Positions 8,603 through 63,716 of a DNA stretch of 64,000 bases are shown here, in pieces. Source of the DNA: Nannocystis bainbridge (GTDB taxonomy: Bacteria; Myxococcota_A; Polyangia; Nannocystales; Nannocystaceae). Every line of letters begins with the position of its first letter. Position 1 is the first letter of the stretch. The stretch spans positions 2,624,001 through 2,688,000 of the forward strand of contig NZ_JAQNDL010000001.1 of NCBI RefSeq assembly GCF_028368995.1. The letters are read 5' to 3'. The notes under the pieces were generated by a model. That model saw only the letters and a program-made list of their open reading frames with translations, was not told where the DNA came from and did no database searches. The position numbers were made by a program, and so were the translations under genes.

Positions 8603-9535
8603 ATGCACTACCGACTCGAGCACCGGCGGCCCATCGACACCGCGATCGCGCAGCTGCGCTTCTCGCCCGACGGCGAGCGCCTGGCGCTGCTGACCGGCGA
8701 CAAGAAGAACAGCGTGCAGCTGCTGCAGTGCAGCGACCTCGCGCCGCTCGGGGCCCCGCGCTTCCTCCGTCACGACCTCGCCTTCGCCGGCGACGGCGCG
8801 CTGTTCGTCGCCGGTAAGACCATCCAGCGCCACGAGCTCGCCGAGGCCGGCGTCGGCAAGGCGACCCTCTCGATCGACGGCGACAAGAAGGGCCTCACGC
8901 AGATCGCCGCCTCGCCCGACGGCCGCTGGCTGGCGCTGCACAAGCACCTCGACGATCTCGAGCTGTGGTACCTCGGCGATGCGCAGCCGACCCGGCGCGC
9001 CAGCGTGCGCGCCAGCGTGCTCGTCGAGCTCGGCTTCCGGCCCGACAGCGGCCAGCTATGGTTCACCAGCCGGGTCTCGAGCCCGCTCCAGCTGCAGACG
9101 ATCGACCTCGATCCGGCCGGCTCCGATCTACGACCGACGCCGATCCGGCCGCTGCCCGGGGTGTTCGTCTACAGCCCCGTGCGCGCGGCCCCGGGCGGCC
9201 TCGTGGCCGTGAGCGACCAGCACGCCGACCTCGTGCTGCTCGAATGGGGCGCCGCCGAGCCGCGCCCGCTCGGCCTGCGCGCGCTGTGGGGCGACCGCTT
9301 CCCCGAGGACCTGGCCGTCTCGCCCGACGGCAGCCACGTCGCAGTCACCGCCCGCGACTCCGACACCCACCTGCGCGTCAGCGCGGCCGCCCTCGCCGGC
9401 GACGCCGAGCCGTTCACGTTCCGCTGGGAGGGCCGGACCACCAGCACCGCGGTGGCCCTGACCGCCGGCGGCGCCCGCCTGGCCGTGGCCCGCCGCACCT
9501 CGCCGAGCACGCTCTACATGTTTTTAAAGACATGA
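8603..9535 (+). CDS. WD40/beta-propeller repeat protein
   Basis: Repeated LRFSPDGERLA, IAASPDGRWLA, LGFRPDSGQL, LAVSPDGSHVA blades. Confidence 0.8.
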   Translation: MHYRLEHRRPIDTAIAQLRFSPDGERLALLTGDKKNSVQLLQCSDLAPLGAPRFLRHDLAFAGDGALFVAGKTIQRHELAEAGVGKATLSIDGDKKGLTQIAASPDGRWLALHKHLDDLELWYLGDAQPTRRASVRASVLVELGFRPDSGQLWFTSRVSSPLQLQTIDLDPAGSDLRPTPIRPLPGVFVYSPVRAAPGGLVAVSDQHADLVLLEWGAAEPRPLGLRALWGDRFPEDLAVSPDGSHVAVTARDSDTHLRVSAAALAGDAEPFTFRWEGRTTSTAVALTAGGARLAVARRTSPSTLYMFLKT

Positions 9536-9588
9536 CCCAAAGGACAGGGTCATTACGACATGTTTTCGAGAACATGTCCTGACAGACA
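9519..9588. repeat. Five-unit 14-bp phased array
   Basis: TGTTTTTAAAGACA / TGACCCAAAGGACA / GGGTCATTACGACA / TGTTTTCGAGAACA / TGTCCTGACAGACA between convergent genes; overlaps the last codons of the upstream gene. Confidence 0.85.
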
Positions 9589-9600
9589 CTCTTCAAATCA

Positions 9601-11046
9601 TTACCCGAGCTCGGGTCCGGGGCGTTCGGCGACCTCGCGGGCCAGCTTGCCGAGGGTGCGGACCGCGTGGGCCAGCAGGTCGGACCACGGGTAGCCGCAG
9701 CTCATGCGGATGCAGTTGGCGAACCGCGGCTTGGCCGAGAAGATCGGCCCGGGCGCGACGCTGATGCCGTGGGCCAGGGCGCGCGCGTGCAGCTCGAGCG
9801 CCGGCGTGCCCGGCGGCAGCTCGACCCACAGCACGAAGCCGCCGGCCGGGCGCGACACCCGGGTGCCGGCGGGGAAGTGCTCGGCGATCGCCGCGCTGAC
9901 CTGCTCGACCTGGGCCTGCAGCTTGCGCCGCATCGCCCGCAGGTGGTGCTCGTAGCCGCCGTTCTCGACGAAGTCGGCGATCGCCAGCTGCGGCAGCGTC
10001 GGCGTCGCCACGCTGTTGGCGAACTTGAGCTGCTCGACCTGCTCGCGGAACCGGCCCGGCATCGCGTAGCCGACCCGGTAGCCGGGCGCCAGCGTCTTGG
10101 TGAACGACGAGCACAGCATCACCAGCCCGGCCTCGTCGAACGCCTTGGCCGGGCGCGGCATCGCCTGGCCGAAGTAAAGCTCGCCGTAGATGTCGTCCTC
10201 GATCAGCGGGATGTCGCGGCGCGCCAGCATCTCGACCAGCCGCTGCTTGGCCGCGTCGCGCATCGACGCTCCGAGCGGCTGGCTGACCACCGGCAAGCAC
10301 AGCACCGCCTTGATCTTGTGGGCCGCCAGCGCCTCCTCGAGCGCGTCGAGATCCATCCCGGTGCCCGGCTGGCACGGGATCTCGAGCGCGCGGATCCGCA
10401 GGCCCTCGATCAGCTGCAGCAGGCCGAAGTACAGCGGGCTCTCGATCGCCACCGTGTCGCCCGGCTGGGCCACCACGCGCAGGCACAGGCCCAGCGCCTC
10501 CATCGCGCCGACGGTGGTGACCACGTCGTCGGCCGTGACGGCGCAGCCGCGTTCGACCGCGCGGCGGGCGATCTGTCGCCGCAGCGCCGGGCAGCCGGGC
10601 GGCGGATCGTAGGACACGCCGACAGCCCCCGACGCGCGGGCGATCCGCGCCAGGGTGGCGTTGAGGCGGTCGGTCGGCAGCAGCTCCGGGCTCGGCGTGG
10701 CCGCCCCGAACGGCACGATGTGCGGGTCGCGGGTGGCCCCGTAGACCTTGGCCACCAGGCTCGCCACCGACACCTTCGAGGCCGTCGTCGAGGTCCGCGG
10801 CGCCCGCGGCTCGGGCAGCGTCGCGCAGCGCCGGCGCACGTAGTGGCCCGACTGCGGCCGCGCCTCGATCAGGCCGCTGCCCTCGAGGTGCTGGTAGGCC
10901 TGGATCACCGTCGACACGCTGACGCCCTGCTGCTTGCTCAGGCGCCGCACCGACGGCACGCGGTCGCCCGGGCGCAGCGCCCCGCGCTCGATGAGCCCGG
11001 CCACGTGGGCCGCCACCCGCTCGTAGAGCAACGCCCCCGCGTCCAC
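9601..11046 (-). CDS. MocR/GabR-type GntR regulator with PLP aminotransferase domain
   Basis: N-terminal wHTH (LYERVA..GALRPGDRVPSVRRLS..VSVSTVIQAY..LE..G.IEARPQSG); IEDDIYGEL and SSFTKTLAPGYRVG. Confidence 0.95.
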   Translation of the reverse strand: MDAGALLYERVAAHVAGLIERGALRPGDRVPSVRRLSKQQGVSVSTVIQAYQHLEGSGLIEARPQSGHYVRRRCATLPEPRAPRTSTTASKVSVASLVAKVYGATRDPHIVPFGAATPSPELLPTDRLNATLARIARASGAVGVSYDPPPGCPALRRQIARRAVERGCAVTADDVVTTVGAMEALGLCLRVVAQPGDTVAIESPLYFGLLQLIEGLRIRALEIPCQPGTGMDLDALEEALAAHKIKAVLCLPVVSQPLGASMRDAAKQRLVEMLARRDIPLIEDDIYGELYFGQAMPRPAKAFDEAGLVMLCSSFTKTLAPGYRVGYAMPGRFREQVEQLKFANSVATPTLPQLAIADFVENGGYEHHLRAMRRKLQAQVEQVSAAIAEHFPAGTRVSRPAGGFVLWVELPPGTPALELHARALAHGISVAPGPIFSAKPRFANCIRMSCGYPWSDLLAHAVRTLGKLAREVAERPGPELG

Positions 11047-11079
11047 GACACCAGCCTACCTCGCCGCGGCGGGTGGGAC

Positions 11080-11168
11080 CAGCACAGCCCGGCCGGCGCC
11101 CGGCCGGCACAGTTGCAGCGAACTGCAACTGTACCGGTACCATCTCGGTCCTTCTGCATCTGTTACGG
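11080..11168. promoter_or_regulatory. Probable MocR operator region in the divergent promoter
   Basis: Recurrent CACAG/ACTGT/CTGTACCGGTAC/TCTGT elements, including the inverted repeat ACAGTTGCAG-CGAA-CTGCAACTGT (11109-11132). Confidence 0.5.
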
Positions 11169-11195
11169 TCGGGGTCGCCGGCCCATGCTGTGGCC

Positions 11196-12140
11196 ATGGC
11201 TTCCTCCTCCGGCGTCTGGATCGCCCCGCCCGTGCGGATCGCCTGGGACCGGGCCGCCGCCTCCGCGACCCGCCCGGCGCGCGCGAGGCCGCCGATGATG
11301 ATCGTCGCGGCGATGCTCGCGGTGTATTTCCTGTGGGGCTCGACCTACCTGGCGATCCGCGTCGCGCTCGAGACGATCCCGCCGTTCTCGCTCGGGGCCA
11401 TGCGGTTCCTGATCGCCGGCGGCGGGCTCTACGCGGCGCTGCGCCTGTTCGGCGCGCCCAAGCCGACCGCCGCCGAGTGGCGCACCTCGTTCCTCACCGG
11501 CGCGCTGCTGTTCGTGGCCGGCAACGGCTTCGTGGTGCTCGGCGAGCAGTGGGTCAGCTCCGGCCTGGTCGCGCTGGTGGTCGGGACCATGCCGCTGTGG
11601 GCCGCCCTGTTCGGCCGCGCCGCCGGGCAGCCGCCGACCACCCGCGAGTGGCTGGGCCTCGGCCTCGGCTTCGCCGGCGTCGCCATCCTTCAGCTCGGCG
11701 GCGAGCTCGCGGGCGCCGGCCTCGGCGCGCTGCTGGTCCTGCTCGCCCCGGTCTGCTGGGCCCTCGGCGTGGTCCTCGGCCGCTCTCGCCCGCTGCCGGC
11801 CGGGCCGATGGCCGCCGCCACCCAGATGCTGGCCGGCGGCGTGATGATGGCCGGCATCGCCGCCCTGCTGGGCGAGGCACCGGCTGTCCCTTCGGCCAGG
11901 TCCATGGCGGCCGTGCTCCACCTGGTCGTCAGCGGCTCGCTGATCGGCTTCACCGCCTACGGCTACCTGCTGCGCCGGACCCGGCCCGCCGTCGCCAACA
12001 GCTACGCCTACGTCAACCCGGTGGTCGCCATCGTGCTCGGCGCCGCTCTGGCCAGCGAGCCGGTCGGCCCGCTGACCTGGCTGGCGACCGCGGTGATCCT
12101 GTCCGGCGTGGTCGTCATCGGCCTCGGCGGCAAGCGCTGA
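11196..12140 (+). CDS. yedA: DMT/EamA drug-metabolite exporter, YedA-like
   Basis: VYFLWGSTYLAIR, RFLIAGG, GSLIGFTAYGYLL, SYAYVNPVVA; divergent from the MocR regulator. Confidence 0.88.
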   Translation: MASSSGVWIAPPVRIAWDRAAASATRPARARPPMMIVAAMLAVYFLWGSTYLAIRVALETIPPFSLGAMRFLIAGGGLYAALRLFGAPKPTAAEWRTSFLTGALLFVAGNGFVVLGEQWVSSGLVALVVGTMPLWAALFGRAAGQPPTTREWLGLGLGFAGVAILQLGGELAGAGLGALLVLLAPVCWALGVVLGRSRPLPAGPMAAATQMLAGGVMMAGIAALLGEAPAVPSARSMAAVLHLVVSGSLIGFTAYGYLLRRTRPAVANSYAYVNPVVAIVLGAALASEPVGPLTWLATAVILSGVVVIGLGGKR

Positions 12141-12144
12141 TGCA

Positions 12145-12192
12145 TGTCCTTCAGGGCATGTCCTCGAGGACATGCCACCTCGGGGCCATGTC
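12145..12192. repeat. 14-bp phased array (2-3 units)
   Basis: TGTCCTTCAGGGCA / TGTCCTCGAGGACA / degenerate unit; CATG at 12143, 12157, 12171; convergent gap. Confidence 0.85.
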
Positions 12193-12194
12193 TT

Positions 12195-12602
12195 TCAGCT
12201 CCGCGGCCCGTCGTAAACCTGGACGCTGACGCGGATCTGCCCCGAGTTGTCCTCGTGGTTCGAGTCCCAATAATAAAACAGCAGCGTGCCCTCGGTCAGG
12301 ATCGTCATGCTCAGGTGGGTGCCGACGCCGAAGAACGTGGCGCCGCCGTCGAGGCTGCCGACCAGCGCGCCGTACAAGAACGCCTGGGCGCCGCGGCCGA
12401 ACAGCCCGTAGTCGCCGCCCAGCGGGTTGCCGAGGCCGTTCGCGTTCGAGGTCCGGTCGGCCACGCCGGCGCTCCACGTGTCCTCGGGATCGACGTGGAT
12501 CACCAGCAGCTGCCCCGGCGACAGCGCGATCGCGGTGTCGAGGGCGGCCCCGCCCGAGATGCTGTGCTTCCTCGCGTCCACCACGAATGCGCCCTGCGCC
12601 AT
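12195..12602 (-). CDS. LecA/PA-IL-like beta-sandwich lectin
   Basis: 135 aa; DTxIxL..GQ..W....ANG, YGALVGSL, FxVG, GTLLFYYWDSNHEDNSG. Confidence 0.65.
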   Translation of the reverse strand: MAQGAFVVDARKHSISGGAALDTAIALSPGQLLVIHVDPEDTWSAGVADRTSNANGLGNPLGGDYGLFGRGAQAFLYGALVGSLDGGATFFGVGTHLSMTILTEGTLLFYYWDSNHEDNSGQIRVSVQVYDGPRS

Positions 12603-12776
12603 GAACCCCTCCCGACCCTGCGGTCGTCGCGGTTCGTGGACCGGGACCTCGCGACCGTCAAGCCGGCCTCGCGTCGCGCCCGGCGAACGCCGACCCGGCG
12701 CGCGCGAGCCGTCGCCGCCGCGCGGCTCGGCGGCGTGCGGGGCCGCCGTGACGCGCACGAGCGCGCGCCGACGACA

Positions 12777-12824
12777 TGTCCCGCAGGACATGTGATGCGC
12801 AGTTACGACCTGTCCCGCGGGACA
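12777..12824. repeat. Two perfect TGTCC-N4-GGACA palindromes
   Basis: 12777-12790 and 12811-12824, just downstream of the hydrolase stop. Confidence 0.9.
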
Positions 12825-12837
12825 GGCCGCCGCGGCG

Positions 12838-13665: not shown

Positions 13666-13782
13666 CGAGAACCTCCTGTGCGCATCGAGCGTACCGCCTA
13701 TTGAATCAGAGTCAATAGCCGCTCGGAACCCTCTGTGGCGGGTCTCAGCGCCCCCGTCACAGCACAGCGCGCGAAACCGCCC

Positions 13783-15403: not shown

Positions 15404-15772
15404 ATGCGAATGAGAATCAACGAATACACCTGGATTCATACGACGATCTTCGCGCTCGCGGCCGCATTCGCGACGACCGCGTGCGACGAGACTGAGGCGA
15501 TCGACGAGGAGGCGCTGGCCGTCGAGCCGGTCGACGAAGACGAACCCGAGGCGGGTCAGGTCGACGGCCAGACGGTCGACGAGCTGACCGACGACGAGGA
15601 GGAGGTCAGCGCCGACGAGGAGCGCCGCCGCGGGCACGACGACGACGACGGCTGGGGCCGCCGGCGTCACGGCCACGACGACGACGACGGCTGGGGCCGT
15701 CGGCGCCGCCACGACGACGACGGCTGGGGCCGCCGCCGCCACGGCGGTCGCGACGGGTGGGGTCGCCACTAG
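15404..15772 (+). CDS. Acidic lipoprotein/precursor peptide with repeated HDDDDGWG-RRR cores
   Basis: Strong SD AGGAGGAG at 15391-15398; signal peptide with lipobox TTAC; Glu/Asp-rich linker; four GWG-R repeats. Confidence 0.85.
   Translation: MRMRINEYTWIHTTIFALAAAFATTACDETEAIDEEALAVEPVDEDEPEAGQVDGQTVDELTDDEEEVSADEERRRGHDDDDGWGRRRHGHDDDDGWGRRRRHDDDGWGRRRHGGRDGWGRH
15635..15769 (+). repeat. Coding tandem repeat (CAC GAC GAC GAC [GAC] GGC TGG GGC CGx CGx CGx)
   Basis: Three near-perfect units plus one degenerate unit. Confidence 0.9.
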
Positions 15773-17938: not shown

Positions 17939-18096
17939 CAGTCACCGCGATCGGCGGTCGCGCGATTCGTCGCCGCCGCCGCGCACCCAAGAATAAATGC
18001 AGGCCCGACGAGGGCGAGCCGCAGCTCGCCCCCGCCGGACCTGCCGGGCGAGCGTGACACTGGTCGTCTCGGTCACGCCCGCCGCATCCCTTCACC

Positions 18097-23014: not shown

Positions 23015-25531
23015 GTGGTTCTCACCCCTTGTCCTGGCCCCCCTTGGCCGCCCACACTCGAAGCGCCCGCCCGGATGCCCGCGCCGCCCCGAGACCTGAT
23101 CCCGGCCCCGCTCGTGCCCGCCCCGCCGCGCGGCCCCGCGGGCCTTGCCGCGGCCGTCGACTCCTGGACGATCTCGTTCGACGAGCCGCCGGCGCCCGAT
23201 CGCCCTGACGACCGCGCCGTCACGCGCAAGGACCACCTCGGGCAGGCGCCACCGCCGGTCCGCCAGGACGACCGCGCCGTCACTCGCAAGGAGCTCAGCG
23301 GCCCGCGGCCCGACGCCATCACCCGCAAGGACGCAGGCCCGGGCGACGAGGCCCGCCCCGAACCAGTGCGCCCGCTCGCCGGCAAGACCGGTCGCGGCGG
23401 CCCCGGCCGCGTCATCACGCGCAGCGGCGCCGCGCAGGGCAACGCCGACAGCAAGCAGGTCCGCCTGTTGCCCGGCCGCCGGGTCCCCGGGACCCGCTAC
23501 CGCCTGATCCGCTGGCTCGGCGAGGGCGGCATGGGCGTCGTCTACGAGGCCGAGCACGAGGACATCGAGCGCCGCGTGGCCCTCAAGATCCTCCGCCACG
23601 AGGCCAGCGAAGACCCGCAGCAGGCGGCCCACTTCCGCGACGAGGCCCGCGCCGCCAGCCGGATCGGCTCGCCCAACATCGTCGAGATCTTCGACTTCGG
23701 CGAGCTGCCCGACGGCCGCCTGATGTTCGCGATGGAGCTGCTGAACGGCCACGGCCTCGACAGCGAGCTCGACAAGTGTCCGATGGACCAGGCGCGGATG
23801 ATCGGGATCCTGCGCCAGGTCTGCAAGGGCCTGGCGGCGGCGCACGAGGTCGGGATCATCCACCGCGACGTCAAGCCCGACAACATCATTTTGGTCGGCC
23901 ACAACGGCAAGGCCGATTGGGTCAAGGTCGTCGATTTCGGCATCGCCACCGTGCACGCCGAGACCGACGCCGGGGCCGCCGGCACGCCGCACTACATGGC
24001 ACCCGAGCAGGTGCTGGGCCAGAGCTTCGACGGCCGCCTCGACATGTACTCGTTCGGCTGCACCGCCTACGAGCTGCTGGTCGGCAAGCCGCCGTTCGTG
24101 GCGCCGACGATCGAGGAGATCCTCGAGCATCAGCTGGCCAAGACGCCGACGCCGCCGTCGGAGCTGTGTCCGCCGGGCTCGGTGCACCCGGCGCTCGAGG
24201 CGGTGATCCTGCGCTGCCTCGAGAAGGAGCCGGACCACCGCTACCGCGACATGCGGGACGTCGAGGCCGCCCTGTGCGAGGCCCAGATCGCCGCCGGCCT
24301 GCACACCGCCTACGACGACCTCGCGCTGCCCGAGGTCGACGCCGACCGCTACGAGCGGCTGCGCCGCGACATGCCGCAGCCGGGCATGATCCGCCAGCGA
24401 CGGCGGTGGCTGTGGCCGGCGATCGCCGGCGCCAGCACCTTGCTGGCGCTGCTGCTGGCGCTCGCGCTATGGAACCTGCGCCGCGCGCCCGCGCCGGAGG
24501 AGCAGCTCGCCGTCGACACCCTCGTCAACGACGCGCGGGCCGCCGGCGCCCGCGCCTACTGGGTCTACCCGCCCGAGGACGAGCCCCAGCTGACCGCGCT
24601 GCTGAAGATCCGCGCGCTCGAGGAGCTGCGCGGCGGGGCCCGCTCGCTGGCCAACGGCAAGGCGATCGAGCTGCGCGAGGAGTTCGCGCAGACGCTGGTC
24701 CGGCTCGGCGATCAGTACTGGGAGATGGACGGCGGCAAGCCGTTCGCCCGCGACTACTACATCCAGGCGGTGCTGTTCGACCCGAACGACGTCCGCGCCC
24801 GCGAGCGCTCCGGCGTGACCCCGGGCTTCATCTCCGACCTCGAGGACCGGGCCCTCAGCGGCGGCTTCACCCCGGCCGAGCTGCGCAACACCGGCGTGCT
24901 GGTGGCGCTCGCCGAGGAGGACACGAGCAAGCGCGACAGGGCGCTGCTCGACCTCGTCGACGGCGCCGACAACACGTCGCTGGTGATCGCCGCGTCGGCC
25001 GAGAAGCTGGTCCAGTCGACCCAGGCGCGGCCGAAGGGCGGGCGCCGTGCGAACGAGGCCCGGCCCGAGACGACCGCCGCCGAGCCCGGCGCGCCGCAGC
25101 CGTCCGCGGCCCAGCCCGAGCCCGAGCCGAGCACGCCGAGCAAGCCACCCGCGGCCGGCAGCAAGCGCGACGTCAAACAGTCGACCACGCTGGCCAAGGA
25201 CGCCCGCTCCGCCCTGGCCTCCGGCGACCGCAAGCGGGCCGAGACGCTCTTCCACCAGGCGCTGGCCGCCGACAACCGCAACGCGGTGGCGCTGATCGGC
25301 CTGTCGGACCTCGAGTTCGACAAGGGCGCCCACCAGCGCGCCGCCGACTACGCCGAAAAGGCGATCGCCGCCGCGCCGAAGACCGCCCTCTACCACCTCA
25401 AGCTCGGCGACGCCTACTTCAAGCTGCTGCGCTACGCCGACGCCCGCCGCGCCTACGACAAGGCCAAGGAGCTCGGCTCCCGCGACGCCGACGAGCGCCT
25501 CACCAAGCTCAAGGCCAAGCTCGGCAAGTAG
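23015..25531 (+). CDS. Ser/Thr protein kinase with TM segment and C-terminal TPR
   Basis: LGEGGMGVVY, VALK, HRDVKPDN, DFG, GTPHYMAPE; TM after RRRW; TPR helices; start uncertain. Confidence 0.93.
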   Translation: MVLTPCPGPPWPPTLEAPARMPAPPRDLIPAPLVPAPPRGPAGLAAAVDSWTISFDEPPAPDRPDDRAVTRKDHLGQAPPPVRQDDRAVTRKELSGPRPDAITRKDAGPGDEARPEPVRPLAGKTGRGGPGRVITRSGAAQGNADSKQVRLLPGRRVPGTRYRLIRWLGEGGMGVVYEAEHEDIERRVALKILRHEASEDPQQAAHFRDEARAASRIGSPNIVEIFDFGELPDGRLMFAMELLNGHGLDSELDKCPMDQARMIGILRQVCKGLAAAHEVGIIHRDVKPDNIILVGHNGKADWVKVVDFGIATVHAETDAGAAGTPHYMAPEQVLGQSFDGRLDMYSFGCTAYELLVGKPPFVAPTIEEILEHQLAKTPTPPSELCPPGSVHPALEAVILRCLEKEPDHRYRDMRDVEAALCEAQIAAGLHTAYDDLALPEVDADRYERLRRDMPQPGMIRQRRRWLWPAIAGASTLLALLLALALWNLRRAPAPEEQLAVDTLVNDARAAGARAYWVYPPEDEPQLTALLKIRALEELRGGARSLANGKAIELREEFAQTLVRLGDQYWEMDGGKPFARDYYIQAVLFDPNDVRARERSGVTPGFISDLEDRALSGGFTPAELRNTGVLVALAEEDTSKRDRALLDLVDGADNTSLVIAASAEKLVQSTQARPKGGRRANEARPETTAAEPGAPQPSAAQPEPEPSTPSKPPAAGSKRDVKQSTTLAKDARSALASGDRKRAETLFHQALAADNRNAVALIGLSDLEFDKGAHQRAADYAEKAIAAAPKTALYHLKLGDAYFKLLRYADARRAYDKAKELGSRDADERLTKLKAKLGK

Positions 25532-25537
25532 GCCGGA

Positions 25538-25584
25538 TGTCCCTCGGGACATGCCCGCTCGGGCATGTCCATGAGGACATGTCC
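25538..25584. repeat. 14-bp phased array (3.5 units)
   Basis: TGTCCCTCGGGACA / TGCCCGCTCGGGCA / TGTCCATGAGGACA / TGTCC between convergent stops. Confidence 0.9.
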
Positions 25585-28562: not shown

Positions 28563-29074
28563 CCCTCGCGCTCGCTGCGTCGCAACATGTCCATCGGGAC
28601 ATCTGCAACGATTCCCGTGCGCGACCTGGTGCGCCGGCGAATAAACCAGCGCTCGCCGTTGGGAAGAATGGATGCACCGGCACCCGATGTCATCCTTCGG
28701 CCTCACTGTCAGTTCCTCTCCCACGCGCGAATCACCGCCCGAGAGCGCCCGGCTCGCGAAAGCGCGTGGTCACGAGCCTCGGATCTCGAAAGATCCGCGC
28801 GCGTGGCCCCGCATCGTTCATCGCAGAAAAGGTGACGAGAGCGGCCGGTTCGCGCCAGGAGTCGCATGCACCGTTACTCCGGCCGCTCTCGTCGGGAGCG
28901 TGTGGCCCACCGTGTCCCGGAGGACAGCGGTGGCCACCTTCGAATCCTTGCACGAAGGGGACGAGACGCGGCGAGCTCGCAAGGAGGTCCTGGTCAAGCG
29001 AGCTCGCCGCGCTCATCGAAGGGGGTCGGGCCAGCCAGCGGCGATCGCGGCCGGGCCCGCAGTCGGTCCTGCGA

Positions 29075-33414: not shown

Positions 33415-34026
33415 GTGGAGACCGACGAGGCGCTGGTGGCCGCGTGGCGCGGCGGGGACAAGCGGGCCGGCAGCCGGCTGTTCGCCCGCCACTTCGAGCC
33501 GATCGCCCGCTTCTTCTACAGCAAGGTCCAGACCGGCGTGGAGGACCTCGTGCAGCGCACCTTCCTCGCCCTCGTCGAGCGCAGCGACAGGCTGCCCGAG
33601 GGCGTGCCGGTCCGCGCCTACTTGTTCGGGATCGCGCGCCACCTGCTGCTCCGCCGCTTCCGCGACCAGTACCGCGACGGCATCTTCGACGGCGACACCG
33701 TCTCGGTCGCCGACCTCGGCGAGTCGCCCAGCGCGCTGATCGACCGCCGCGAGCACCTGCAGCTCCTCTACCAGGCCCTGCGCGCGCTGCCGCTCGAGCT
33801 GCAGATCGTCGTCGAGCTGTTCTACTGGGAGGGCTTCACCGCCCCGGCCATCGCCGCCGCGCTGGAGCTGCCCGAGGGCACCGTGCGCAGCCGCCTCCGC
33901 CGCGCCCGCGAGCTGCTCGGCGACCGCATCGCCGCCCTCGCCCCCGCCCCCGAGCTGGCCGCCGCGACCATGAACGACCTCGAGCGCTGGGCCCGCGAGC
34001 TGCGCGACCAGCTCGGCAAAGGTTGA
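33415..34026 (+). CDS. ECF RNA polymerase sigma factor
   Basis: DEALVAAWRGGD, EDLVQRTF, RAYLFGIAR, LELPEGTVRSRLRRAR; GTG 6 nt after TACCAT; divergent from the kinase. Confidence 0.92.
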   Translation: METDEALVAAWRGGDKRAGSRLFARHFEPIARFFYSKVQTGVEDLVQRTFLALVERSDRLPEGVPVRAYLFGIARHLLLRRFRDQYRDGIFDGDTVSVADLGESPSALIDRREHLQLLYQALRALPLELQIVVELFYWEGFTAPAIAAALELPEGTVRSRLRRARELLGDRIAALAPAPELAAATMNDLERWARELRDQLGKG

Positions 34027-34029
34027 GCC

Positions 34030-34099
34030 TGTCCCTCGGAGCATGCCCTCCAGGACATGCCCCGGAGAGCATGTCCGCCAGGGCATGTCCCCGCGGCCA
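34030..34099. repeat. Five-unit 14-bp phased array
   Basis: TGTCCCTCGGAGCA / TGCCCTCCAGGACA / TGCCCCGGAGAGCA / TGTCCGCCAGGGCA / TGTCCCCGCGGCCA fills almost the whole convergent gap. Confidence 0.9.
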
Positions 34100-46692: not shown

Positions 46693-47811
46693 TCAGCGTG
46701 GGATGAACTGATCGCACAGCGGCGCGAGCTGGGCCGCCACATCCTTAAAAAACTGCCCGTAGGCGGGCGCGCAGATCGACGCCATGTTGCCGTGCTTGAG
46801 CTGGTCCTCCATGAACAGCCGCATCCGGTTGGTATTTCCCTGCGGACCATCGGGCGCACACAAGCTCGGCACGAGGTCGTTGTCCGCGGTGATCGCCAGA
46901 GCGATCACTGCGTCCTCGTCCCCGCCCTTCACCGCGTACAGCGCCTTGCGCCACTGGTAGGGCCCGCCAAGCGACGCATATTCGTAGGAATCCTGGATGA
47001 TGACGAGCAGCAGCAACGCATCGTCGCGAAAGAACCCCTCGTTGCAGCCTCCCGGCGCGTTCAGCTCGATGCCCGACTCGATGAGCGGGTGGTCCAGCGC
47101 CGCCAGGATCGAGTCGAACGGCATCGGCGTCGCCACGCCGTAGCCCACCCGCGCGAGGCACGTGAACGCCTCCACCAGGTCCTCTTCTTCGTCGGTGATG
47201 TAGCGACGCCCGCCTGCCAGCTCGCAGCGACGCCCGGACGAGCCGATCCCGCTGCTGAACGTCTCGCCGGCGCCCATCGTCTTGTCGCACGCGTCGAGCT
47301 TCGCCCCGCACTGGCTCGGCTCTCCGTTCGGATCGCAGTCGTCGGGGTCCTTGCATTGCGAGCAGTCGCTCATCCCCCACACGAACGACGAGTCGGTCAC
47401 GAGGATGTGCAGGTCGAACCCGCCGAGCTCCTCTTCCAGAGCCTGCGCGAACTCGGGGAACGCCGCGATCAGCCGCGGCTGGTACTCCTTCATCGGGTAC
47501 TCCGTCGAGATCGCGAAGATGATGTCGATCTTGCCCTGGCAGCCCATCGGCGCCACGTCCCCGAAGTCGGGCAGCGCTCCACCGCTGCCTGTCACGCTCG
47601 CGTCGCTCGTGCTCGAGGTCGTCGATGTCGTCGAGGTCGTCACGTCGACCGCGCTCGTCGAGGACGTCGTAGTCAATGTCGTCGATGTCGAAGGGTTCGC
47701 GCTGCCCGTCCCCACCTCGCTGCTCGCGGTCCCGAACGGCGAGCCATCCGGCGCAGCGGCGTTGCAGCCAACAAAGTAGAGAGCAGCGACGGAGCCGATG
47801 AGGCGCGACAT
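46693..47811 (-). CDS. Lipoprotein family B, copy 2
   Basis: 372 aa, lipobox FVGC; near-identical to 48333-49451. Confidence 0.88.
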   Translation of the reverse strand: MSRLIGSVAALYFVGCNAAAPDGSPFGTASSEVGTGSANPSTSTTLTTTSSTSAVDVTTSTTSTTSSTSDASVTGSGGALPDFGDVAPMGCQGKIDIIFAISTEYPMKEYQPRLIAAFPEFAQALEEELGGFDLHILVTDSSFVWGMSDCSQCKDPDDCDPNGEPSQCGAKLDACDKTMGAGETFSSGIGSSGRRCELAGGRRYITDEEEDLVEAFTCLARVGYGVATPMPFDSILAALDHPLIESGIELNAPGGCNEGFFRDDALLLLVIIQDSYEYASLGGPYQWRKALYAVKGGDEDAVIALAITADNDLVPSLCAPDGPQGNTNRMRLFMEDQLKHGNMASICAPAYGQFFKDVAAQLAPLCDQFIPR

Positions 47812-48332: not shown

Positions 48333-49451
48333 TCAGCGAGGGATGAACTGATCGCACAGCGGCCCGAGCTTGGCCGCCACATCCTTAAAAAACTGCCCGT
48401 AGGCGGGCGCGCAGATCGACGCCATGTTGCCGTGCTTGAGTTGGTCTTCCATGAACAGCCGCATGCGGTTGGTATACCCCTGCGGGCCGTCGGGCGCACA
48501 CAGGCTGGGTACGATGTCATTGTCCGCGGTGATCGCCAGCGCGATCACCGCGTCCTCGTCCCCGCCCTTCACCTCGTACAGCGCCTTGCGCCACTGGTAC
48601 GGCCCGCCCAGGGACACATACTCGTACGAGTTTTGAATGATGACGAGCAGCAGCAACGCATCGTCGCGAAAGAACCCCTCGTTGCAGCCGCCCGGCGCGT
48701 TCAGCTCGATCCCCGTCTCGATGAGCGGGTGGTCCAGCGCCGCCAGGATCGAGTCGAACGGCATCGGCGTCGCCACGGCGTAGCCCACCCGCGCGAGGCA
48801 CGTGAACGCCTCCACCAGGTCCTCTTCTTCGTCGGTGATGTAGCGACGTCCGCCTGCCAGCTCGCAGCGACGCCCGGACGAGCCGATCCCGCTGCTGAAC
48901 GTCTCGCCGGCGCCCATCGTCGTGTCGCACGCGTCGAGCTTCGCCCCGCACTGGCTCGGCTCTCCGTTCGGATCGCAGTCGTCGGGGTCCTTGCATTGCG
49001 AGCAGTCGCTCATCCCCCACACGAACGACGAGTCGGTCACGAGGATGTGCAGGTCGAACCCGCCGAGCTCCTCTTCCAGAGCCTGCGCGAACTCGGGGAA
49101 CGCCGCGATCAGCCGCGGCTGGTACTCCTTCATCGGGTACTCCGTCGAGATCGCGAAGATGATGTCGATCTTGCCCTGGCAGCCCATCGGCGCCACGTCC
49201 CCGAAGTCGGGCAGCGCTCCACCGCTGCCTGTCACGCTCGCGTCGCTCGTGCTCGAGGTCGTCGATGTCGTCGAGGTCGTCACGTCGACCGCGCTCGTCG
49301 AGGACGTCGTCGTCGATGTCGTCGATGTCGAAGGGTTCGCGCTGCCCGTCCCCACCTCGCTGCTCGCGGTCCCGAACGGCGAGCCATCCGGCGCAGCGGC
49401 GTTGCAGCCAACAAAGTAGAGAGCAGCGACGGAGCCGATGAGGCGCGACAT
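48333..49451 (-). CDS. Lipoprotein family B, copy 3
   Basis: 372 aa; about 11 substitutions relative to copy 2, mostly C-terminal. Confidence 0.88.
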   Translation of the reverse strand: MSRLIGSVAALYFVGCNAAAPDGSPFGTASSEVGTGSANPSTSTTSTTTSSTSAVDVTTSTTSTTSSTSDASVTGSGGALPDFGDVAPMGCQGKIDIIFAISTEYPMKEYQPRLIAAFPEFAQALEEELGGFDLHILVTDSSFVWGMSDCSQCKDPDDCDPNGEPSQCGAKLDACDTTMGAGETFSSGIGSSGRRCELAGGRRYITDEEEDLVEAFTCLARVGYAVATPMPFDSILAALDHPLIETGIELNAPGGCNEGFFRDDALLLLVIIQNSYEYVSLGGPYQWRKALYEVKGGDEDAVIALAITADNDIVPSLCAPDGPQGYTNRMRLFMEDQLKHGNMASICAPAYGQFFKDVAAKLGPLCDQFIPR

Positions 49452-52527: not shown

Positions 52528-52533
52528 CGCGGC

Positions 52534-52617
52534 TGTGCTCCGGGACATGTCCGCCAGGGCATGTCTGAACGGGCATGGTTGATCGGGCATGTCCGAGAGG
52601 ACATGCCCGATGGTTCA
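52534..52617. repeat. Six-unit 14-bp phased array
   Basis: CATG at 52546, 52560, 52574, 52588, 52602; two more units at 52668-52695; convergent gap. Confidence 0.9.
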
Positions 52618-52678
52618 TTCACCGCGACGGGCCGGCTTCGCCCGACCCGGCTGGACGGTCAGCGACATGGCCTTTCGG

Positions 52679-53635
52679 TCATGTCCACTGGAACACGCGG
52701 CCGCGCTCGCCGTCCCAGCACCAGGGGGTCGCCGCGTCGAGCAGCGCCCCGCCGAGCCAGCGGGCCGGGGTGGCCCAGCGCGCGCGACCGGCCAGGGTCG
52801 CCAGGCCGGCCTCGGTGATCTCCGCCGTCAGCGCGCGCGGGTCCTCGCCAATGAGGCGCACCAGCGGCGCCTCGCCTCCGGCCAGCCGGCGCAGGCGGGC
52901 CAGCACCAGCAGGTCGGTGAGCCACGGGCGGGCCTCGGCGCGGCCGCAGGCCGCCAGCAGCTCCCCCACGTCGGCGCGGCCGCTGGCCAGCGCGGCCAGC
53001 AGCTGGCGCTCGGTGCGAGCCAGGCCGTCCTCACGACCTGGCCATTCGGCCAGGCTCAGCGCCAGCGCGGCGCGCAGCGCCGGCCAGACGACGAACGCCG
53101 CCGGATCGTCGACCAGCGCCTGCAGCCGCATCGGCGCCGGCGCGCGGTAGGCCGCCCAGGCGTGCACGGCCAGGGCGATCGCGGCCGGGTCGATGCGCTC
53201 GCGGGCCGCGAACGCCTGCGCCAGCGCGGCCTCGCCGAGCTCGCCCACGCTGCAGCCCGGGCGGACGGGGTCGTCGTCGGCGGTGACCCATGACAGCCGC
53301 GCTCCGGTCGGACCGAGCCGGGCGATCAGGGCCAGGGCCACCGCCTGGCAGAACCACTCGTTACCTGTCCAAAGGACCAGCTCGTCGCGCGCCGCCGCGG
53401 CCGCCAGCGCCTCGTCCTGGGCCCGCAGGCCGGCGCAGATCCGCGGCACGGCGTCGAGGTCGCCGATGTGGTCGGCCAGCCAGTCGGCGCGGATCTGGCG
53501 AAACGTCTCGTCGTCGACCTCCGCCGGGACCGGGCCCTCGCACAGCACCTCCGACCACTCGAGCCGCTCCCCGGGGACGCCGGCCTCGGCGAGCCGGGCC
53601 AGCAGCAAAGATCCGCCATGGACATGGATCGGCAC
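52679..53635 (-). CDS. DUF1835-like hypothetical protein
   Basis: W.EVLCEGPVP, R..W, ELVLW....FCQ, P..DGL..TE..LL, RWLGG......W.WD; GTG 6 nt after TATGCT. Confidence 0.8.
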   Translation of the reverse strand: MPIHVHGGSLLLARLAEAGVPGERLEWSEVLCEGPVPAEVDDETFRQIRADWLADHIGDLDAVPRICAGLRAQDEALAAAAARDELVLWTGNEWFCQAVALALIARLGPTGARLSWVTADDDPVRPGCSVGELGEAALAQAFAARERIDPAAIALAVHAWAAYRAPAPMRLQALVDDPAAFVVWPALRAALALSLAEWPGREDGLARTERQLLAALASGRADVGELLAACGRAEARPWLTDLLVLARLRRLAGGEAPLVRLIGEDPRALTAEITEAGLATLAGRARWATPARWLGGALLDAATPWCWDGERGRVFQWT

Positions 53636-57190: not shown

Positions 57191-57234
57191 TCGCGGTCGA
57201 CCTTAAACCTCTGTTTTCGCGCGGGAGAGTGGTG

Positions 57235-58777: not shown

Positions 58778-58833
58778 TGTCCCGCAGGACATGCCCCATC
58801 AAGCATGTCCTCGACGCCATGTCCCCCAGGACA
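58778..58833. repeat. Four-unit 14-bp phased array
   Basis: TGTCCCGCAGGACA / TGCCCCATCAAGCA / TGTCCTCGACGCCA / TGTCCCCCAGGACA; convergent gap. Confidence 0.9.
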
Positions 58834-58842
58834 TGCCCCTTA

Positions 58843-60363
58843 TCAGCCGGCTTCGACTTCGTCGGTGATCCCGGCCAGCGCGCGGGCCAGCGCCTTTTTG
58901 TCCTCGACCTGCATCTGCCGGGCGATCTGGATCCGCTGGGCCTGCGGCGAGCCGGCCCCGTGCATCGACTCCGTCAAGTAGCCGACGGCGTTGCGCCCCA
59001 TCGTCAGGTTCTCGATCAGCCGCAGCGCCCGCGCCCGCGCCTCGGCTGACACCCCGTCGCGCCCGCGCAGGTATTTTTTCAACAGCGGCCCGATCTCCGG
59101 GTCGGCGAAGTCGTGCTCCGACGGCAGCGTCGCCAGCAGCCCGCCGGCCAGGTCCTGGGCCAGGCGGGCCAGCTCGTAGGGGAAGCGGGTGACGTTGTGC
59201 TTGCACACGTTGGCCAGCAGCGGGTCGTTCTGCCAGTTGCCCGCCGGCGTGGCCGTCGACTCGTGCGACGCCGCGATCCCGGCGCCGTAGATCGTCTCGT
59301 TGAGGTGGGCCATCTCGACCAGCTTGTCGCGCACGTGCGAGACCTGCGGCACCCCGTTGTAGTCGGCGATCAGCGCCGCCGCGCCGATCAGCACGTCGCC
59401 GACCCCCGCCTTGCACACGTAGCTGCGGCGGTGGTACGCGGTGAACCGCTCGACCAGGTCGGCCGCGAACTCGAACTCGCCGTCCATGAAGATCAGCTCG
59501 TCCGGCACGAACACGTCGTCGAGGATGATGAGCGCCTCCTGGCCGCCGTAGCGAGCGTTGCCGACGTCGACCGACCCGCCCTCGAGCGCCCGCGTGTCGC
59601 ACGACTGGCGCCCGACCACGAAGGTCAGCCCCGGGTGGTCGACCGGCAGCGCGCACACGATCGCGTGGTCGCGGTCGCGCGGCCCGAGCCGCATCGTCGG
59701 CATCACCACGATCCAGTGCGAGTTGATGCACCCGGTCTGGTGCGCCTTGGCCCCGCGGATCACCACCCCGCCCGGCTCGCGCCGGACCACCCGCACGAAC
59801 ATGTCGGGGTCGCTCTGCTCGTGCGGCGCCTTGCCGCGGTCGCCCTTGACGTCGGTCATCGCCCCGCCGACCACCAGGTTCTGCCGCTGCATCGCCCGCA
59901 CGAACGCGCGCAGGCGGCTGTGGTAGGGCGTCCCGCGCGCCTGGTCGATGAGCCAGGTGGTGGTGTGCAGCGCGTTGATCGCGTCCATGCCGACGCAGCG
60001 CTGGAAGCACGTGCCCGTCAGCTGGCCGAGCCGGCGCTGCATCTTGTTCTGCTGCACGACGTCGGCCGCCGACTCGGTGACGTGGAGGAAGCGGTTGACC
60101 CGCTCGCCGGTCGCGGCGACGGTCGCCGTCGCCAGCTCGGGCCGCTCGAGCGCGAGGTCGTAGGTACGCGCGACCGCCTCGATCGACGGCCGCAAGATCG
60201 GGTGGTCGACCGGCTCCGCCACCCGCTTGCCGAGCAGGAACACCCGCAGCTCGCGCCCGCGCAGGCTGGCGACGTAGTCGGCGCCGCTGACGATCGGCGG
60301 TCGCGGCGGCAGCCACGGAGGGGACGGCTCGGTCTCGCTGGACGATGCGGCGGCGCCGGACAT
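58843..60363 (-). CDS. abfD: 4-hydroxybutyryl-CoA dehydratase/vinylacetyl-CoA delta-isomerase (HpaB-fold family)
   Basis: TCFQRCVGMD, AMTDVKGDR, GAKAHQTG, YHRRSYVCK, ESMHGAGSPQAQ; Fe-S ligand pattern present. Confidence 0.85.
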   Translation of the reverse strand: MSGAAASSSETEPSPPWLPPRPPIVSGADYVASLRGRELRVFLLGKRVAEPVDHPILRPSIEAVARTYDLALERPELATATVAATGERVNRFLHVTESAADVVQQNKMQRRLGQLTGTCFQRCVGMDAINALHTTTWLIDQARGTPYHSRLRAFVRAMQRQNLVVGGAMTDVKGDRGKAPHEQSDPDMFVRVVRREPGGVVIRGAKAHQTGCINSHWIVVMPTMRLGPRDRDHAIVCALPVDHPGLTFVVGRQSCDTRALEGGSVDVGNARYGGQEALIILDDVFVPDELIFMDGEFEFAADLVERFTAYHRRSYVCKAGVGDVLIGAAALIADYNGVPQVSHVRDKLVEMAHLNETIYGAGIAASHESTATPAGNWQNDPLLANVCKHNVTRFPYELARLAQDLAGGLLATLPSEHDFADPEIGPLLKKYLRGRDGVSAEARARALRLIENLTMGRNAVGYLTESMHGAGSPQAQRIQIARQMQVEDKKALARALAGITDEVEAG

Positions 60364-60406
60364 GACGGCAGGATAACCCGAGCCGCCCGCCGCCCGCACG
60401 CGGCGC

Positions 60407-61582: not shown

Positions 61583-61727
61583 AGCCCAGGTCTCTCTCCC
61601 GCGATTCGGACCCGGGCGGCCCCCCGCCCGCCGTGTCACGGAAGCTCGGCCGCACCCGAGGCGCGCCGCCGCCGCCGGGCGCCGCGCTCGCCAGCAGCGC
61701 TGGAGCCCGGGCGCCGTGCTCGCCGCG

Positions 61728-63038: not shown

Positions 63039-63108
63039 GCCCTCGCGGTTTTGGCACCACCCGGGGCCGTGGCGCAAGCGCCGGCGCGCGCGGTATAGTG
63101 GCCGCGCG

Positions 63109-63615
63109 TTGACGCAGCTCGGCAGCATCTTCGAACCCGAGGCGCCCGGACCCCGCGGCCGCGACCTCCACGCCGACGTCACGGTCCCCGCCTGGGCGCT
63201 CGGCCTCCCCTTCCCGTTCGAGGTCCGCGTCCCGCTCGACCTGGCCGCCGAGGGCGGATACGCGCGCCGCACCGTGTCCTCGCTCGACAGCGACGACCGC
63301 GTGCGCCTGTCGCTGCCTGCCGACTTCCCCACCGGCGGGGTCCTGCGCCTGCGCGGCCAGGGCGAGGCGCTCGACGGCGGCCGCCCCGGCGATCTCCTGG
63401 TCCACGTCGAGGTCGACCCGCGCCGCGGCGAACCGCCGCCCGAGGTCAAGCTGGCCCTGGCGGCGATGCCGAGCCCCGCGCCGCCCGCCGCCGCCGACGA
63501 GGCCACCGCCCTCGCCTACCGCCTGCCGGCCCAGAGCCCCGCGCTCGACGCCAACACCCTGACCTGGATGGCCGCCCTGCTGGCCCTGGTCGCCGCGGCG
63601 ATGATGTTCGGCTGA
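63109..63615 (+). CDS. DnaJ C-terminal-domain protein with C-terminal TM anchor, no J domain
   Basis: RGRDLHADV, LP....G.VLRLRGQG...GGRPGDLLVHV; TATAGT upstream of the TTG. Confidence 0.72.
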   Translation: MTQLGSIFEPEAPGPRGRDLHADVTVPAWALGLPFPFEVRVPLDLAAEGGYARRTVSSLDSDDRVRLSLPADFPTGGVLRLRGQGEALDGGRPGDLLVHVEVDPRRGEPPPEVKLALAAMPSPAPPAAADEATALAYRLPAQSPALDANTLTWMAALLALVAAAMMFG

Positions 63616-63618
63616 GCC

Positions 63619-63716
63619 TGGCGGCCAGGACATGTCTTCAGGCGCATGTCCTCGGGGACATGGCGCCGAGGACATTCCCCATGCGACATGTCCCGAGCGA
63701 CCTGTCGCAAGCGACA
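63619..63716. repeat. Seven-unit 14-bp phased array
   Basis: Units start at 63619, 63633, 63647, 63661, 63675, 63689, 63703; convergent gap. Confidence 0.9.

Follow-up and report, generated by a model that had tools for sequence, protein, structure and literature searches.

The genome of Nannocystis bainbridge contains a 14-bp inverted-repeat module, TGYCC-N4-GGRCA, whose copies join head to tail so that each junction forms a GGRCATGYCC palindrome and the whole array keeps a strict 14-bp phase. These phased palindrome arrays are real, occur far beyond chance and hold genome-wide, and sequence comparison indicates that their family scarcely extends beyond a single genus of soil myxobacteria, Nannocystis (Myxococcota). 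We regard it as a REP/BIME-like family whose arrays, when transcribed, would form stacks of hairpins devoid of U-tracts and thereby define or shield 3′ ends on both strands, a reading that we judge to have an even chance of being right. Its nearest likeness is to the REP elements of E. coli, from which an unusual array architecture and the lack of a known mobilising enzyme set it apart.

Abundance and phasing of the module

Genome-wide, GACATGTC occurred in 2237 copies against ~75 expected (an estimate from base composition), and its copy-to-copy spacing was 14 bp in 223 cases, 28 bp in 69, 42 bp in 31 and 56 bp in 21, with any other spacing below 100 bp found in at most 8 cases each. Arrays of at least three units numbered 1081 in the 11-Mb genome and 5 in a reversed-sequence control, falling steadily with unit number (392, 306, 240, 102 and 30 arrays of 3 to 7 units). 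The exact module was present in 2828 copies, compared with 23-93 copies each for the same arms at 12 other spacings (N0 to N12); the spacer, or loop, is strictly 4 nt long, and spacers are AT-rich (~52% A+T versus ~28% genome-wide). Arrays start and stop on half-units, which identifies the module as the hairpin TGYCC-N4-GGRCA.

The original prediction, made on a 64,000-nt window of this genome (coordinates below are counted from its first base; arrays and intergenic modules carry no strand), had listed seven arrays, all of which were recovered in place or a few bases off. All seven lie within convergent gaps and fill them nearly completely, and on both strands their predicted RNA folds, mostly stems with 4-nt loops, were stabler than those of shuffled sequences (14 of 14 folds, z -2.6 to -6.5). 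TRF reported a period of 14 at 12142-12198, 52557-52593, 58778-58839, 63628-63662 and 63645-63716, and a period of 28 at 34039-34093. The first array (9517..9590; z -2.6 on the + strand and -2.8 on the − strand) is AT-rich and degenerate, with 5-6 units and CATG or CAGG at 9517, 9531, 9545, 9559 and 9573; it is present as described but not wholly intergenic, as the + ORF reaches into its first units, the array beginning within the last codons before the stop at 9533-9535, with the − gene stop at 9601-9603. The second (12140..12193; z -3.7/-3.2) fills the entire 54-bp gap between stops at 12138-12140 and 12195-12197 and comprises four units, the last 2 bp off phase, rather than the two or three first counted. 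The third (25538..25584; z -4.5/-4.4), a half-unit followed by three units between stops at 25529-25531 and 25592-25594, includes the perfect 10-bp hairpin GGACATGCCC-gctc-GGGCATGTCC.

The fourth array (34025..34090, five units; z -4.2/-5.4) overlaps with its first unit the TGA stop of an ECF sigma-factor gene, an AcrB-family gene converging from the right. In the fifth (52543..52608, five units; z -6.5/-4.0), CATG recurs at 52546, 52560, 52574, 52588 and 52602, in the exact phase that had been noted, and the predicted fold has two 13-bp hairpins with 4-nt loops; the same gap holds a separate doublet, CGACATGGCC-tttc-GGTCATGTCC (52663..52686), which overlaps the stop of the − gene (52679-52681). 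The sixth (58778..58838; z -5.8/-6.0), a half-unit followed by four units, adjoins the stop of an HpaB-like − gene at 58843-58845, and the seventh (63628..63721; z -3.8/-5.5) has seven units, the last two degenerate with CCTG and CAGA centres, between stops at 63613-63615 and 63733-63735. Single modules occur as well: two at 4328..4389 in the convergent gap 4321-4503, the second of which is a 10-bp hairpin, GGGCCTGTCC-cgaa-GGACAGGCCC, with a lower stem unlike the array consensus; one at 28588..28601, directly past the stop of the + gene in the convergent gap 28563-29074, where a TCGCATGTCC-N4-GGACATCTGC module is present in 4 of 4 relatives; and two at 12777..12824 in a tandem (−,−) gap. Independent gene calls returned the same 14 convergent junctions as the original count, and nine of them, again in line with that count, carry the motif (4321, 9536, 12141, 25532, 28563, 34027, 52528, 58546 and 63616).

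Placement and inheritance of the arrays

With gap classes assigned by our own codon-statistics gene caller, arrays of at least three units occurred in 483 of 1509 convergent gaps (32%), 351 of 5231 tandem gaps (6.7%) and 24 of 1507 divergent gaps (1.6%), and in 424 of the 982 convergent gaps of 50-300 bp (43%). This genome-wide count strongly supports the proposed link between arrays and gene orientation, which equal frequencies in divergent or tandem gaps would have contradicted, and arrays were also longer in convergent than in tandem gaps (4.48 versus 4.10 units, p = 9e-8). The further claim that every array of at least four units lies between two stop codons is true of the window but not of the genome, where, of 689 such arrays, 390 are in convergent, 222 in tandem and 8 in divergent gaps and 69 lie inside ORFs. 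The median distance from stop to array was 18-20 bp, and tandem-gap arrays lay 19 bp past the upstream stop and 176 bp before the next start (medians).

Roughly a third of the exact modules (1003 of 2828, ~35%) lie in coding DNA, where they are enriched 13-84x over the same arms at other spacings and show a strong frame preference (537/381/85). Some arrays are translated in frame, with an in-frame period of 42 bp, equal to three units and 14 residues, as in an IucA/IucC synthetase gene whose array is present in 7 genomes. The acyl-CoA dehydrogenase gene of the window (6668-8380) contains a + strand module at 7330..7343, identical in 5 of 5 genomes compared, within the native codons ACA CAT GTC CCC GAG GAC A, encoding the peptide T-H-V-P-E-D. 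Two further + strand modules in this gene (8188-8201 and 8281-8294) have conserved arms and variable 4-nt spacers among 5 genomes, and the spacer variation at 8281-8294 alters the encoded residue. Orthologues of this gene were absent at E <= 1e-60, a threshold that may be too strict, from 30 other genomes of the family, two of them from the same genus.

In orthologous gaps of 4 relatives, the array was retained in 26 of 26 assessable cases, and the 14 convergent junctions showed no array gain or loss across 5 genomes, with 79% arm identity versus 46% spacer identity in non-coding DNA (p = 7e-16). The arrays are thus old and vertically inherited: from species to species they mark the same gene ends, even as their spacers drift. 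Copy number shifts through slippage, which was directly seen; the argument that recent slippage does not explain the arrays fails for some of them, one of which has ~13 identical 14-mers in succession. Sister genera have 1-5 single ACATGTCC-N4-GGACATGT palindromes per genome, and in several the site precedes a secreted-protein gene, within AT-rich sequence, a placement that looks operator-like from its sequence context. No match to the RAYT transposase family (IS200/IS605-type Y1, PF01797) was found in this genome (90.5% complete, 5 contigs), while 6 of 14 well-known genomes searched as a control had matches, and neither the genes adjoining the five largest arrays nor those adjoining the sister-genus sites included a recurrent transposase, nuclease or regulator.

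The module was absent from the literature searched on Nannocystis, Myxococcus and myxobacterial repeats or terminators, a search that lay outside most subscription journals, and the matches listed for the 10-mer string concerned p53 response elements or other eukaryote topics. The four sequencing runs compared consisted of Logan contigs with 90-99% likeness, which seem to come from relatives and to be DNA, probably, and so carry no information on transcript ends.

Transcript-level and competing readings

In the transcript-level reading, slippage would duplicate whole modules in tandem into head-to-tail arrays and, because each new junction is then a GGRCATGYCC palindrome, the phase would come out at exactly 14 bp. 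The arrays would work in the transcript: given that the unit is palindromic, either strand could fold into a stack of stable hairpins, with neighbouring units predicted to pair into 9-13-bp stems with 4-nt loops, and since both strands fold and the U-tract is absent, they would act as 3′-end structures in both directions. Their role may be that of a barrier to 3′-to-5′ exonucleases, of a factor-assisted terminator or of both, as for REP/BIME in E. coli, where a preprint describes a REP element (REP325) as a partial Rho-dependent terminator and mRNA stabiliser (bioRxiv 10.64898/2026.03.23.713779). A run of 5-bp tetraloop hairpins protecting 3′ ends had been offered as an alternative to a protein filament, and it is the better fit of the two in four respects, namely the half-unit array ends, the 4-nt loop, the ~19-nt distance from the stop and an excess of G/U at stem positions on the sense strand, but it lacks compensatory pairing change. 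Furthermore, a 3′-end RNA role leaves unexplained the ~1000 intragenic modules and the isolated 10-mer palindromes, which also occur and are unable to fold on their own. Given that the arm sequence, and not just its pairing, is conserved and that the module is enriched in coding DNA, we infer a sequence-specific partner or drive, which would recognise the arms.

The predicted absence of hairpin+U terminators held for 6 of the 7 window arrays, with one weak match at 12162-12185; tandem-gap arrays were followed by no U-tract, the T fraction being 0.07-0.33 at all 24 nt downstream, and the window had 0 Rfam matches at gathering thresholds. A study on mycobacterial RNA polymerase reports that this enzyme needs the U-tract at intrinsic terminators (PMC3993855), so hairpins alone may not terminate. 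Best-window folding energy did not discriminate between gap classes in this GC-rich genome.

The sense-strand G/U excess at stem positions of tandem-gap arrays survived stratification by local GC skew: the shares of G at position 3 versus C at position 8 were 0.709 and 0.451 in the two skew strata, which under skew alone would be mirror images summing to 1.0, as they nearly were in the adjacent spacers (0.602 and 0.377). Within the arrays of convergent gaps, G.U was favoured on the − strand in the half close to the − gene (270 versus 189), while the half close to the + gene was balanced (241 G.U and 237 A.C on the + strand), an asymmetry between halves with Fisher p = 0.005. The raw excess of G.U over A.C was rejected as proof of an RNA role, being mostly replication-type GC skew rather than transcription (327:82 versus 172:226). 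The residual sense-strand effect is modest, and transcription-coupled mutation bias could be its source.

The proposed covariation of half-sites did not bear out selection on pairing, as the pooled signal was weak (position 8 formed a Watson-Crick pair with position 3 of the following unit in 1450 of 2963 cases versus 1365 expected) and compensatory change does not keep up the pairing. Real arrays folded no better than their own units in permuted order, nor than arrays built from the units of other arrays (-29.4 versus -29.0 kcal/mol, p = 0.21, in a sample of 300 of the 415 eligible arrays), and perfect pairs in individual arrays are therefore anecdotes.

It is possible, though we find it somewhat improbable, that the motif is a selfish or drive-generated repeat that accumulates by a genome-wide bias with no function at individual sites, its arrays growing by the slippage that was directly seen. 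The bias might stem from natural transformation, through an uptake-signal-like preference, from biased repair or conversion or from a mobilising enzyme that has escaped recognition, and the motif would survive where it does least harm, past stop codons, in protein linkers and in tolerant codon contexts. Such a drive would account for the genus-specific thousands of copies, the large coding share with its frame preferences, the native-codon make-up of modules in a conserved enzyme motif, in-frame translated arrays in linkers and the depletion of promoter-bearing divergent gaps, as purifying selection would give. In addition, motif density falls in lower-GC bins (correlation 0.34-0.79 across contigs), which are probably foreign DNA. 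The overall pattern resembles that of Neisseria DUS, Haemophilus USS and cyanobacterial HIP1, but uptake signals lack symmetry and are not known to occur in phased arrays. Also against a drive, no RAYT was found and no transposase adjoined the arrays examined, and the retention of arrays in all assessable orthologous gaps and at all 14 junctions while their spacers turn over looks more like selection that favours their presence than like neutral survival. D12-class adenine methyltransferases (PF02086, the class searched) do not track the motif either, being ubiquitous among the relatives (34 of 41, with or without it).

We consider it unlikely that the arrays act at the DNA level, with a dimeric sequence-specific protein recognising TGYCC-N4-GGRCA and coating the phased arrays. 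Such a coat would block transcription from both sides, form a supercoil or topological boundary where genes converge or serve as a nucleoid-organising site. Conserved arms with a free, AT-rich spacer in a strict 5-4-5 geometry would suit such a protein, as would the operator-like single sites of the sister genera, the want of array-specific compensatory evolution, with within-unit palindromy not selected as pairing, and the enriched intragenic modules, conserved even with A/T-ending codons that are expectedly rare at this GC. However, no candidate protein emerged, with unrelated housekeeping or secreted-protein genes lying next to the largest arrays and the sister-genus sites; a strong DNA roadblock is hard to reconcile with in-frame arrays that persist in conserved genes across 7 genomes; and neither the sense-strand stem excess nor the half-array asymmetry is predicted by double-stranded DNA binding. 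The specific proposal of a cooperative filament or roadblock in which three units (42 bp) span four helical turns found no direct support, given the intragenic arrays and the lack of any preference for 3, 6 or other multiples of three units.

A broader version, which we hold doubtful, is that a putative genus-specific factor reads TGYCC-N4-GGRCA as DNA or as folded nucleic acid, assembles cooperatively on the phased arrays, marks the ends of transcription units and drives the spread into coding DNA. If true, a dedicated, sequence-coded marking of ends in these large myxobacterial genomes, by termination, insulation or 3′-end protection, would replace hairpin+U terminators, and sister genera with their 1-5 single sites would represent the ancestral state before expansion.

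Known repeats and terminators

The closest likeness is to REP/BIME and REPINs of Enterobacteria and Pseudomonas, which are likewise short, GC-rich, lineage-specific palindromes in hundreds to thousands of copies. Like REP/BIME, the arrays cluster past gene ends and in convergent gaps, differ among strains in copy number and are predicted to form 3′-UTR hairpins without U-tracts. REPs measure ~35 bp, lie within clusters in alternating orientation with linkers between them and, where RAYT-associated, share a conserved 5′ GTAG-type tetranucleotide. By contrast, the unit of this family measures only 14 bp, joins its neighbours without a linker, has the consensus GGRCATGYCC plus N4 with no GTAG and is fully symmetric, so its orientation cannot alternate; there is no RAYT/Y1 transposase, one third of the modules are intragenic and positions are stable in 5 genomes. 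The family would thus represent REP-like biology without RAYT, in which the motif is kept up by something other than base-pair covariation.

Intrinsic and bidirectional terminators are likewise stable GC-rich hairpins ~19 nt past the stop, and symmetry allows both strands to be used. Unlike intrinsic terminators, whose U-tract is ~7-9 nt, the arrays have no U- or A-tract, repeat one fixed stem sequence at ~1000 loci and form multiple phased hairpins rather than a single one. For the question of how transcription units end in very GC-rich bacteria without hairpin+U terminators, the arrays offer ~1000 natural test sites with varying unit number and natural intragenic controls. Myxobacterial engineering might use them as compact terminators or insulators that serve both directions, for which they are candidates, and they are likely to cause breaks in assemblies and differences in copy number among strains.

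Neisseria DUS, Pasteurellaceae USS and HIP1, the cyanobacterial highly iterated palindrome (PMC5861425), share with the module lineage specificity, shortness, tens-fold over-representation in coding and non-coding DNA, frame preferences and orthologous conservation. The motif here differs from them in being an inverted repeat with an obligatory 4-nt spacer that forms phased tandem arrays, ~10x denser in convergent than in divergent gaps (an estimate), and the comparison with D12-class methyltransferases gave no link to methylation. Inverted DUS pairs are located in terminators. Rickettsia palindromic elements (RPEs) lie in frame within ORFs and are translated, and MIRUs vary in tandem copy number; the arrays likewise include translated in-frame copies and, as in MIRU-type intergenic VNTRs, vary in tandem copy number between species. 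RPE and MIRU units are 40-150 bp rather than 14-bp palindromes, and the in-frame period of three units distinguishes the arrays from both, with repeats translated as 14-residue linker peptides. Together with REP-like biology that lacks a RAYT and a motif kept up by something other than base-pair covariation, these peptides open the origin and maintenance of interspersed repeats in bacteria to direct tests.

Module structure and position relative to genes

In the source genome of the window (G000, with the window at C1:2624001-2688000; 11.05 Mb in five contigs, C1-C5, 71-72% GC), GACATGTC occurred in 2237 copies versus ~75 estimated from base composition, and neighbouring copies were spaced by 14 bp (223 occurrences), 28 bp (69), 42 bp (31) or 56 bp (21), any other spacing below 100 bp being found at most eight times. 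Defining a unit as a match to the palindrome GGRCATGYCC with no more than two mismatches, and chaining units at 13-15 or 27-29 bp, we found 1081 arrays with at least three units and 689 with at least four, against 5 arrays of at least three units in the reversed genome. The arrays of at least three units amounted to 65 kb and lay on every contig. Arrays start with the 3' half-unit TGYCC and end with the 5' half-unit GGRCA. What is repeated is accordingly TGYCC-N4-GGRCA, an inverted repeat of 14 bp, and the 10-bp palindrome is the product of each module-module junction. Exact modules numbered 2828 at N4 and 23-93 at each of the 12 remaining spacings in the range N0 to N12, with 21 exact N4 modules in the reversed-genome control; the 4-nt spacers were AT-rich and almost free in sequence. 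Array density was lower in bins of lower GC. The 100-kb bins poor in modules (2-5 versus a mean of ~25) lay at C1:1.1-1.3 Mb, C1:0.5 Mb, C1:1.8 Mb, C2:1.8 Mb and C5:0.4 Mb, and most of them were also of lower GC (0.686-0.711); they may be acquired islands, or else stretches occupied by very long genes.

Gap classes rest on our own simple gene caller, based on codon log-likelihoods, which predicted 8252 genes, with a coverage of 82-85% on each contig. On these calls the window contained 14 convergent junctions, nine of them carrying the motif, in agreement with the original prediction. All seven arrays that it had named were present, at the predicted positions or within a few bases of them, and the CATG phase reported for the array at 52.5 kb was exact; TRF recovered the periodicity in six of these arrays, as 14 bp except for one reported at 28 bp. 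Every one of the seven lay in a convergent gap, which it nearly filled. The further claim that each array of at least four units sits between two stop codons held within the window and broke down genome-wide, where the 689 such arrays comprised 390 in convergent gaps, 222 in tandem gaps, 69 in open frames and 8 in divergent gaps. Arrays of at least three units occupied 483 of 1509 convergent gaps (32%), 351 of 5231 tandem gaps (6.7%) and 24 of 1507 divergent gaps (1.6%); of the 982 convergent gaps measuring 50-300 bp, 424 held at least three units and another 148 held two. The median distance from stop codon to array start was 18-20 bp, and tandem-gap arrays lay 19 bp from the upstream stop and 176 bp from the next start. 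Arrays in convergent gaps were slightly longer than those in tandem gaps (4.48 versus 4.10 units). The genes adjoining the five largest arrays were ordinary.

Conservation and lineage distribution

The comparisons covered this single 64-kb window in four relatives and one additional gene. The window was syntenic with all four, array-flanking genes showing ~85-94% nucleotide identity. All 26 orthologous gaps that could be assessed kept an array, and the comparable array-free convergent gaps of G000, at 17939 and 21926, were array-free in every relative too. Unit numbers and spacers varied between species; in non-coding DNA, arm identity was 79% versus 46% for spacers (Fisher p = 7e-16), with the caveat that aligning repeats favours pairing arm with arm. 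Four more distantly related genomes within the genus had, at the position orthologous to the 25.5-kb site, at most a degenerate array, with the 14-bp phase retained.

The argument that units within an array differ, so that recent slippage does not explain them, has to be narrowed, as slippage is visible in some arrays. The largest array of G000 (C3:552674-552938; 2695-2960 of locus L130), with 20 units by our own count and ~13 identical tandem 14-mers, is a recent slippage expansion and likely a VNTR. The same-genus genome G007 carried ~25 units in the orthologue of gap 52528-52678 (within L095-L098), including a 42-bp higher-order repeat in three copies.

Of the 10 other same-genus genomes, 8 contained the two-unit pattern, as against 0 of 14 from the family's other genera and 0 of 16 from the class's other families. 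A one-genome-per-species scan of 185,579 species returned 78 loci, which by our own count from titles comprised 64 in Nannocystis records, 9 in one Nannocystaceae MAG and 2 in one Myxococcales MAG, the remaining three being single strays in unrelated records. Using the stricter module CATGTCC-N4-GGACATG for cross-genome counts, we found 369 copies in G000, 180-266 in each of five large same-genus genomes (G001, G003, G005, G007 and G010), 2-50 in the same-genus genomes of 4.5-9.1 Mb (G002, G004, G006, G008 and G009), 1-5 in five genomes of two sister genera and none in 45 other relatives.

Sister-genus sites were single palindromes of 18-20 bp, one of them within a conserved part of the YceG gene. 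In the sister-genus genomes G011 and G043, single ACATGTCC-N4-GGACATGT palindromes lay within AT-rich stretches (loci L104, L106, L107 and L110). At L104, L106 and L110 the site immediately precedes an ORF for a secreted protein with a DUF4215 or CAP domain, and at L107 it lies in a divergent gap, ~200 bp upstream of a gene without annotation. These palindromes look like operator sites and could reflect how the family was organised ancestrally. At three sister-genus loci (L099, L108 and L109) the module (...CATGTCC-N4-GGACATG) lay within a YceG/MltG-like ORF, and the form GGTCATGTCCcctcGGACATG was common to two of the three.

Possible transcript-level signals and likeness to REP/BIME elements

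No T-tract followed the arrays, and the predicted lack of hairpin-plus-U terminators was borne out at six of the seven window arrays by a consensus terminator scan, which returned one weak match. Rfam gave no match in the window. A 20-bp GC-rich hairpin with a T-rich tail was present at 17999-18044 (minus strand), in a convergent gap that carries no array, the hairpin itself being conserved in five of five genomes compared; terminator-like hairpins of the classical kind thus occur alongside the arrays. The window also holds two paralogous genes of 316 residues each (46693-47643 and 48333-49283), both with an identical short hairpin and T-run within the 3'-terminal coding sequence (46755-46768 and 48395-48408), and the same region in relatives contained several paralogues of this family.

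Folded on either strand, each of the seven window arrays was more stable than its shuffles (14 folds, z -2.6 to -6.5), most folds having 9-13-bp stems between neighbouring units and 4-nt loops. Pairing within the unit was depleted, pairing across units was only slightly enriched, and real arrays folded no better than arrays assembled from other arrays' units; these results argue against structure-only selection.

Local GC skew in G000 is strong (median absolute 0.08 in 200-kb windows at array sites), and any test of strand asymmetry in this genome must control for it. Gene-oriented tandem-gap arrays had 499 G.U versus 308 A.C, with a ratio of 327:82 where the sense strand was G-rich and 172:226 where it was not, so that skew accounts for most of the excess. 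After skew stratification a sense-linked excess persisted in the stems, with shares of 0.709 and 0.451 for G at position 3 versus C at position 8, and 0.647 and 0.451 for T versus A, while adjoining spacers gave the mirror images that pure skew predicts (0.602/0.377 and 0.447/0.555); calculated by hand, the G/C shares departed from mirror symmetry by ~5 standard errors in stems and by <1 in spacers. Convergent arrays favoured G.U on the minus strand in the half closer to the minus-strand gene (270:189) and were balanced in the other half (241:237), the halves differing at Fisher p = 0.005. These signals are modest, and the convergent-half asymmetry is independent of the skew correction. They are consistent with selection on the transcript, and might also arise from transcription-coupled mutation bias.

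In anatomy and distribution the arrays most closely resemble REP/BIME-type elements: they are palindromes specific to one lineage that lack U-tracts and cluster at 3' ends and in convergent gaps. REP-type elements are reported to be partial terminators as well as mRNA stabilisers (10.64898/2026.03.23.713779), and we regard this as the likeliest way in which the arrays act, at roughly even odds. Unlike strict REPs, the arrays have neither a RAYT transposase, none being found in G000, nor the GTAG signature; they also differ in their short (14-bp), symmetric module, in their strict phase and in having one third of the module copies within genes.

Copies inside genes

Our own gene calls placed 1003 of the 2828 exact modules inside genes, where they were spread evenly along the gene and showed strong frame preferences (537/381/85). 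They were 13-84 times commoner than the same arms at other spacings, codon-phase-keeping spacings included. One module in an acyl-CoA dehydrogenase gene, read as codons ACA CAT GTC CCC GAG GAC A, was identical in five genomes; two further acyl-CoA dehydrogenase modules kept their arms with variable spacers, the encoded residue being altered at 8281-8294. The arms are fixed in sequence without compensatory covariation, and together with the excess in coding DNA this means that some sequence-specific recognition or drive must exist. Such recognition or drive keeps alive two readings besides the REP-like role: a drive that spreads the module with no function at each site, which we regard as rather improbable, and a DNA-binding protein acting on the arrays, which we regard as unlikely. 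The roadblock filament of the original prediction is weakened, given that arrays are conserved within genes and that unit numbers show no 3-unit periodicity.

Among the arrays of at least four units in open frames, 13 had at least six. In a siderophore-synthetase-like gene of the IucA/IucC family (G000:C4:163023-164892, loci L117/L119; orthologues L120-L125), the linker joining the IucA/IucC and FhuF-like domains held an in-frame array of 3-7 units, which was shared by seven same-genus genomes and is translated as 14-residue repeats such as DMS.ETFPSGHAP. Tandem repeats bearing no relation to the palindrome family also occurred inside predicted ORFs of the window, at 15624-15767 (period 33/39 bp), 26215-26399 (period 12) and 29302-29435 (period 12/18), and presumably encode repetitive protein segments.
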